IMG/VR virus record: IMGVR_UViG_3300042446_001440
Location: 1 to 64,000 of that record
Strand: one strand, 5' to 3'
From: a virus
Length of the DNA stretch: 64,000 nucleotides
The position numbers were made by a program, and so were the translations under genes. Numbering within the stretch: the first letter of the stretch is position 1; every line of letters begins with the position of its first letter. This document shows, piece after piece, positions 31,567-31,600 of this stretch. The notes under the pieces were generated by a model. That model was given only the letters and a program-made list of their open reading frames with translations, did not search any database and was not told the origin of the DNA.

Positions 31567-31600
31567 AGGTTTGCAACTCCATAACCTACAATACCGGAGT
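31567..31600 (+). promoter_or_regulatory. H-type pseudoknot in the queC leader (candidate cis-regulatory RNA)
   Basis: S1 AGGTT 31567-71 / AACCT 31583-87; S2 ACTCC 31576-80 / GGAGT 31596-600; ends 20 nt before the ATG. Confidence 0.45.

Follow-up and report, generated by a model that had tools for sequence, protein, structure and literature searches.

A 34-nucleotide H-type RNA pseudoknot lies directly upstream of the queC gene of a lake phage, and both of its helices are retained through compensating base changes in hundreds of related phage sequences. It has no match in Rfam 15, even at E<=10, and the reading that we consider somewhat more likely than not is that it represents a new, so far phage-only, riboswitch-like control RNA for 7-deazaguanine synthesis, the pathway that replaces guanine in phage DNA; its sensing role is inferred from sequence comparison alone. 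The stretch of DNA that was analysed (hereafter the window) comprises the first 64 kb of an 80-kb IMG/VR virus record, and its DNA recurs in many lake-water metagenomes. Its nearest cultured relative is Flavobacterium phage immuto. All genes of the window lie on the + strand with A/U-rich leaders, and none of them shows a Shine-Dalgarno (SD) sequence before its start.

The initial annotation had described two perfect interleaved 5-bp helices in the 57-nt gap before queC, ending 20 nt before the start codon, and on inspection every letter of that description proved correct. The features of the locus are as follows.

29772-30233 (+): queD-like gene with a 6-pyruvoyl-tetrahydropterin synthase fold (Pfam PTPS, E=1.1e-15).
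30494-31279 (+): 261-aa ORF between queD and queC, PHROG 19058 (unknown function).
31285-31563 (+): upstream 92-aa ORF of unknown function without a Pfam or PHROG family, with its TAA stop at 31561-31563 followed by a second in-frame TAA at 31564-31566, so that the first stop lies 3 nt before helix 1.
31567-31571 (+): helix 1, 5' strand (AGGUU), the last U of which forms the U-A pair at the helix junction.
31572-31575 (+): loop 1 (UGCA; CGUA or UGAA in the closest relatives).
31576-31580 (+): helix 2, 5' strand (ACUCC).
31581-31582 (+): loop 2 (AU).
31583-31587 (+): helix 1, 3' strand (AACCU).
31588-31595 (+): loop 3 (ACAATACC in the DNA, ACAAUACC in the RNA), with AAUACC at 31590-31595 and AUAC at 31591-31594, followed by one C.
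31596-31600 (+): helix 2, 3' strand (GGAGU), which is not a Shine-Dalgarno site.
31601-31620 (+): A/U-rich spacer of 20 nt, conserved in length but only loosely in sequence among relatives.
31621-32463 (+): queC, 7-cyano-7-deazaguanine synthase, 280 aa (Pfam PF06508, E=5.9e-38; PHROG 1550, E=2.6e-38).
33320-34222 (+): QueE-like radical SAM enzyme (PHROG 2076, E=4.4e-36).
35621-36253 (+): GTP cyclohydrolase, folE-like (PHROG 2197, E=8.2e-59).

A DpdA/TGT identity for the ORF at 30494-31279 could not be confirmed by sequence, as the protein has no Pfam or PDB sequence match and no similarity to the TGT-like protein of a second phage lineage described below. A recurrent TATATTTAT-like motif is found 12-25 nt before the starts at 6798, 7379, 8425, 10732, 25357, 27684, 37542, 39623, 59600 and 60162, and is probably the phage or host promoter element. 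It is not present in exact form before queC, so the knot is probably transcribed from upstream as part of a longer message. We also examined four metatranscriptome runs, which hold only contigs of 90-95% relatives; none of these bridges the leader, and contigs cannot show transcript ends. Clusters of tRNA genes lie a few kb from queC in relatives (L046 4222-4841 and L011 5104-6629; L numbers denote the individual loci examined) and at the end of the window (62804-63681, 4 tRNAs), and L046 also has a full-length tmRNA (116.6 bits).

Taken alone, the knot is only weakly distinguishable from chance. A perfect 5+5 pseudoknot was present in 439 of 20,000 shuffles of the gap (2.2%), and the window holds 147 such knots on the + strand and 98 on the - strand, of which 5 and 4, respectively, have at least 5 G/C in the 5' strands. 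Nested folding of 31555-31640, which cannot see a pseudoknot, was no better than in shuffles (z=0.40). These figures, together with the homing-endonuclease-like genes and insertions that occur next to the element (L220), would be compatible with a chance pseudoknot or with a DNA-level signal such as a promoter, recombination or homing site. This reading is contradicted by the comparative data presented below and we regard it as a remote possibility, since a DNA site would conserve sequence rather than pairing.

In order to determine whether the structure is conserved, we retrieved the 80 IMG/VR loci whose QueC is closest to that of the window and examined the 100 nt before each start. The same architecture was found at the same place in 59 of the 80, in 42 distinct versions including that of the window, whereas about a quarter of close relatives lack the element altogether and simply abut queC to the upstream gene. 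The upstream gene differs among relatives while the knot and queC stay together. The copies fall into subtypes that differ in helix sequences and in loop 3 length: main forms CGGUU...UAAUCG and CGCUU...UAAGCG, with a loop 3 of 13-17 nt; a CGUUUA/UAAACG form; the short-loop form of the window (d); and an abundant e form with GCC/GGC as helix 2, which is also present before queC of the cultured phage immuto (L001 5062-5092). Further copies lie on phage-like contigs binned into a Sediminibacterium MAG, a Flavobacteriales MAG, an unclassified bacterial MAG (L083) and a Red Sea 'Woesearchaeota' MAG. Three scans for the RNA pattern, which did not use the gene, added over 200 copies, although the metagenome scan brought no closer relative of the window's QueC.

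MAFFT alignment of all subtypes together misaligned the short-loop forms, and the subtypes were therefore analysed separately and with a structural parser of our own. In the main subtype (32 sequences), 90.6% of cells are paired, compared with 27-45% when the partners are slid, 8 of 13 pairs show changes on both sides, and the covariation score is 0.495 against 0.215 in shuffles (0 of 500 reach it). For the window's own subtype we scanned IMG/VR with a pattern that fixes helix 1 and the loops but leaves helix 2 free. Every hit that lies before a QueC gene (48-93% identical to that of the window) has a 5-bp helix 2, in the versions ACUCC/GGAGU, GUUCC/GGAAC, GCUCC/GGAGU, GCCCC/GGGGU and GCUUC/GAAGC, and in the alignment of this subtype (11 sequences) helix 2 is 100% paired with 4 of 5 pairs compensatory. 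The e-type scan, in contrast, fixes helix 2 and leaves helix 1 free apart from the first A of its 3' strand. MAFFT aligns the d and e forms column for column (77 distinct sequences including the window), and in this alignment helix 1 is 99.7% paired with 3 of 5 pairs compensatory (G-C/A-U/G-U, C-G/G-C/U-A and G-C/U-A/A-U), while the e form replaces the junction C-G pair of the d form by U.U. Over all parsed subtypes there are 30 distinct helix 1 and 41 distinct helix 2 versions. G-U pairs fit only when the + strand is read, so the structure is in RNA of the queC sense. The initial annotation had named compensatory change in homologous queC leaders as a test of its proposal, and the outcome is strongly positive.

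A descriptor built from the shared features of the family (helix 1 of at least 5 bp closed by U-A, a U before its 3' strand, an interleaved helix 2 of 3-7 bp, and a loop 3 ending in AUAC plus 0-2 nt) hits the window once, at exactly 31567-31600 (+), with no hit on the - strand and 0 hits in 20 shuffled windows. A model of the main subtype (R1) does not detect the window's subtype even with filters off, and the assignment of the window to the family rests instead on the joint d and e alignment, the shared invariant letters, the position and the descriptor. A second model (R2) scores the window copy at 27.8 bits, but the window was in the seed of that model. The second-best R2 match in the window (14125-14151, - strand, 17.1 bits) is a 5-bp hairpin followed by UAAUACCAGGCA; it has no helix 2, lies on the non-coding strand and has no queC behind it, and we judged it to be chance.

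The association with QueC-family genes was recovered by scans blind to the gene. All 72 main-type hits in IMG/VR lie before a QueC-family gene or cluster: 55 before canonical queC, one before a queC cut by the contig end, one before a queC with an inserted gene in front of it, and 15 before a 34-48-aa Ala/Gly/Arg/Lys-rich ORF (for example MARRAATPAPAPARGGRR...SKS). Seven of these last contigs, read further downstream, carry a divergent QueC, a TGT/DpdA-like gene or both behind the small ORF. This second phage lineage (L190 4136-6786; also L165, L180, L181, L207, L214, L215, L218, L229, L232 and L233) carries the main-type knot at the usual spacing, and in most of its contigs a 239-aa divergent QueC-family protein follows the small basic ORF (Pfam E-values of 7e-15 in L190 and 9e-10 in L180), with a TGT/DpdA-like protein (PHROG 887) in L190 and a weak QueE-like radical SAM gene in L180. 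Of 119 e-type hits, 112 lie before queC, 4 are chance matches and the rest are truncated, and all d-type hits with an intact knot and a readable downstream gene lie before queC. R1 finds one copy per locus and nothing else in 567 kb, and exactly one copy in each of two complete 180-kb phage genomes. The other pathway genes of the window (queD, queE and folE) carry no copy. Neither R1 nor R2 gave a true copy in the 151 Bacteroidia genomes sampled; six of the eight best R2 hits there (17-27 bits) were inspected and are chance, none having helix 2 or a queC behind it, the eight also include the phage-like contig of one genome (G006) that is itself the source of locus L085, and one weak hit, on which no claim rests, lies in an unpublished genome (G103).

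Two loci suggest that the knot and the gene move together as a module. In L345 (10605-11060) an e-type knot with a 17-nt spacer leads into a 7-codon stump (MARYCVF, then a stop), which is followed by a 62-aa ORF, a d-type knot and an intact queC, as if one knot-plus-queC module had been replaced by another. In L220 (6610-6730, - strand) two knots lie in tandem, 4 nt apart, a d-type copy like that of the window (helix 2 GCUUC/GAAGC) and then a main-type copy; after 20 nt comes an 8-codon stump (MLKRRYPP, then a stop), then a promoter-like TATATTTAT and an inserted 240-aa Cys-rich ORF, with the intact queC about 0.8 kb downstream.

Every parsed member retains the U-A pair closing helix 1, a G-C pair three steps below it, a U directly before the 3' strand of helix 1, and AUAC (mostly AAUAC) followed by 0-2 nt at the 3' end of loop 3; AAUACC is invariant in the d and e subtypes, as are A16, T17 and A18 of their joint alignment. 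The closing U-A pair, the preceding U and AUAC were conditions of the parsing descriptor, and their constancy in the 77 distinct sequences is therefore partly by construction, but the MAFFT alignments show the same letters independently. By the geometry of an H-type knot, the 3' end of the helix 1 5' strand, loop 2 and the 3' end of loop 3 all meet at the junction of the two stacked helices, so the fixed letters form one cluster at the place where preQ1 sits in preQ1-I riboswitches. Loop 2 is U in 59 of the 77 sequences, GU in 10, AU in 3, UAU in 3 and other in 2. Loop 3 is 60% A and 2% G over the family, while the short loop of the window has 4 A in 8 nt; the statement of the initial annotation that an A-rich tail is lacking thus holds for this copy but not for the family as a whole. 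The distance from helix 2 to the ATG is 16-21 nt in 73 of 77 sequences, with a mode of 20, and is also kept in the lineage in which the next gene is the small basic ORF.

These RNAs resemble preQ1-I riboswitches (RF00522; types I-III, for example the B. subtilis queC leader, T. tengcongensis and E. coli), which are H-type knots of about 34 nt with an A-rich loop 3 before que genes (PMC11625349), in size (31-45 nt), in topology, in a helix 1 of about 5 bp and a short helix 2, in loop 3 composition, in the concentration of conserved letters at the junction, and in gene context. In preQ1-I, loop 3 runs along the minor groove of helix 1, and a similar course may be expected here. However, no RF00522 match was found at E<=10 for window 31500-31680 or for the main-type (L009 2880-3040) and e-type (L001 5030-5140) representatives, and none at gathering score in the window or in 20 loci. 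The specificity cytosine directly 5' of the P1 3' strand (UC in type I, AC in types II/III; PMC11625349) is replaced by U in all 77 distinct sequences, loop 2 is 1-3 nt instead of 4-6, a different block, AAUAC(C), ends loop 3, helix 2 holds no SD and no terminator follows, and copies were found only on phage or phage-like DNA, in SD-independent hosts. It is therefore very unlikely that the element is merely a divergent preQ1-I member missed by the covariance model, and the claim of the initial annotation that it is not a canonical member holds. The preQ1-II (RF01054) and preQ1-III (RF02680) riboswitches, pseudoknotted aptamers of the same presumed pathway, gave no hits at E<=10; they are two to three times larger, with HLout-type folds and extra helices, and sit before the queT transporter in Firmicutes. 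The SAM-II and SAM-V riboswitches are classic H-type pseudoknots with a loop-helix triplex, and SAM-II occurs in Bacteroidota, but their conserved sequence is different, there is no Rfam match, and their gene context is methionine/SAM. In the immuto locus (L001 5079-5101) there is a sub-threshold match (21 bits against a gathering score of 35.7) to the S16-Flavobacteria ribosomal-protein leader over loop 3, helix 2 and the spacer, which reflects a possible UUAAU/AUUAA hairpin that is not conserved elsewhere. Literature searches found no description of this RNA, within full texts that do not cover most subscription journals.

Some observations sit uneasily with a textbook riboswitch. RNAalifold on 44 leaders that include the spacer and start codon recovers only helix 1 and finds no conserved alternative helix, terminator or SD sequestration. 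A possible pairing of the 3' strand of helix 2 with the start codon in e-type leaders is only 4 bp, marginal in energy and absent in the window, and a possible pairing of loop 3 with the spacer is not supported by RNAalifold. Furthermore, the long upstream frame ends before helix 1 in 19 of the 77 distinct variants (loci L002-L316), over the helix 1 5' strand in 19, inside the knot in 19 and in the spacer in 10, with no long frame ending there in the other 10, and in the CGUUUA form the conserved UAA at loop 2/helix 1 is itself that stop codon. The constant partner of the knot is therefore the queC start and not the upstream stop, the RNA is kept even where it is also coding sequence, and upstream ribosomes must often melt the knot, which is unusual for an aptamer and would suit a coupling or insulating element as well.

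The element could thus alternatively be a ligand-independent structural element of the polycistronic mRNA, which couples the queC start to termination of the upstream ORF or uncouples it, acts as a standby or docking site for the SD-less 30S subunit, or protects the message from nucleases. The position of the upstream stop next to, inside or just after the knot in most variants, the fixed spacing and the apparent movement of knot and queC as a module are consistent with this view, and since hosts of this kind are not known to use SD pairing, mRNA shape near -20 could matter by itself. Nevertheless, a general initiation or stability device should appear before other genes too, yet there is one copy per genome, always at a QueC-family gene, and strict conservation of unpaired junction nucleotides across hundreds of copies is more than a mere roadblock or spacer needs. 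We consider this alternative unlikely.

A protein-bound translational operator is a further possibility, though a doubtful one, in which a phage or host protein (a repressor of the RegA or gene-32 kind, a ribosomal protein or a que-pathway enzyme) would recognise the knot and its fixed junction letters and repress or activate initiation 20 nt away. The layout of a phage H-type knot followed by an A/U-rich unstructured leader is that of the T4 gene 32 operator, although that knot nucleates cooperative binding of the gene's own single-strand-binding protein and lies about 40 nt or more upstream, whereas here the gene encodes a metabolic enzyme and the spacing is 20 nt. Fixed spacing and the lack of a conserved expression-platform helix are in favour of such an operator, and covarying stems next to fixed loop letters fit a protein site as well as an aptamer. 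However, the element is kept across very distant phages, freshwater and marine, with QueC identity down to about 48%, and in the lineage with the small ORF and a highly divergent QueC, so that a protein partner would have to be conserved in all of them, and none was identified. QueC is a PP-loop ATPase with no known RNA-binding role, and no RNA-binding domain was detected in the product of the window's queC. The exclusive tie to one metabolic gene family is what metabolite sensing predicts, and together with the conserved unpaired junction it speaks for a metabolite sensor or a very conserved protein partner, while the overlap with upstream coding sequence and the missing platform keep the alternatives alive.

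Our analysis demonstrates an RNA pseudoknot that is under selection, tied to QueC-family genes in phages of Bacteroidota-like hosts and held at a fixed distance from the start codon, of which the window copy is a short-loop member, while ligand binding, the pocket and any regulatory effect are inferences. The proposal of the initial annotation, a variant sensor of preQ0, preQ1 or a guanine nucleotide or a protein-bound operator tuning phage DNA modification, is thus supported in part: the tie to queC and 7-deazaguanine DNA modification is confirmed, but sensing remains an inference. In the view that we favour, the junction, in an RNA whose varying stems around fixed letters, A-rich loop 3, kept spacing to the ATG and tandem copies in L220 are typical of an aptamer, would be a binding pocket for a small 7-deazaguanine-pathway metabolite, most plausibly preQ0, the product of QueC and the base that such clusters insert into DNA, and the loop 3 cytosine may take the pairing role that a loop 2 cytosine has in preQ1-I, as judged from conservation only. 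Ligand-stabilised folding of the knot at position -21 would change how well the SD-independent ribosome of the host can load on the unstructured A/U-rich start region, which would feed back on queC translation; with no conserved platform, this read-out step is a guess. A search of five phage records for QueF (PF14489) gave only sub-threshold hits, mostly on the folE T-fold, with none above the Pfam cut-off in the window's record, and says nothing about the ligand. In one phage record (G001, that of locus L026; 102825-103454, - strand) a 317-aa frame with two just sub-threshold QueF matches lies about 2 kb from the queC knot and may be a two-domain QueF, which would mean that some knot-bearing phages make preQ1.

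A bolder possibility, which we hold slightly less likely than not, is that this is a fourth, phage-only class of 7-deazaguanine (preQ0/preQ1) riboswitch, with a rebuilt junction pocket in which the loop 3 AUAC(C) and a loop 2 U stand in place of the preQ1-I loop 2 cytosine, and which would control translation without any SD sequence simply by folding at a fixed 20 nt from the start codon. Phages would thereby meter the supply of the base with which they replace guanine in their DNA. The RNA is tiny, abundant as hundreds of natural variants with rich covariation, and present in a cultured phage-host pair (Flavobacterium phage immuto and Flavobacterium sp. LMO8), which makes it directly testable. 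If it binds a metabolite, it would be a new riboswitch class found so far only on phage DNA and tied to anti-restriction DNA hypermodification rather than to tRNA queuosine, and it would show how an aptamer can gate translation in hosts that do not use SD pairing, a question with few worked examples. Even if it turns out to be protein-bound or purely structural, it marks queC as the controlled step of the phage pathway and provides a sequence tag for finding 7-deazaguanine-modifying phages in metagenomes.
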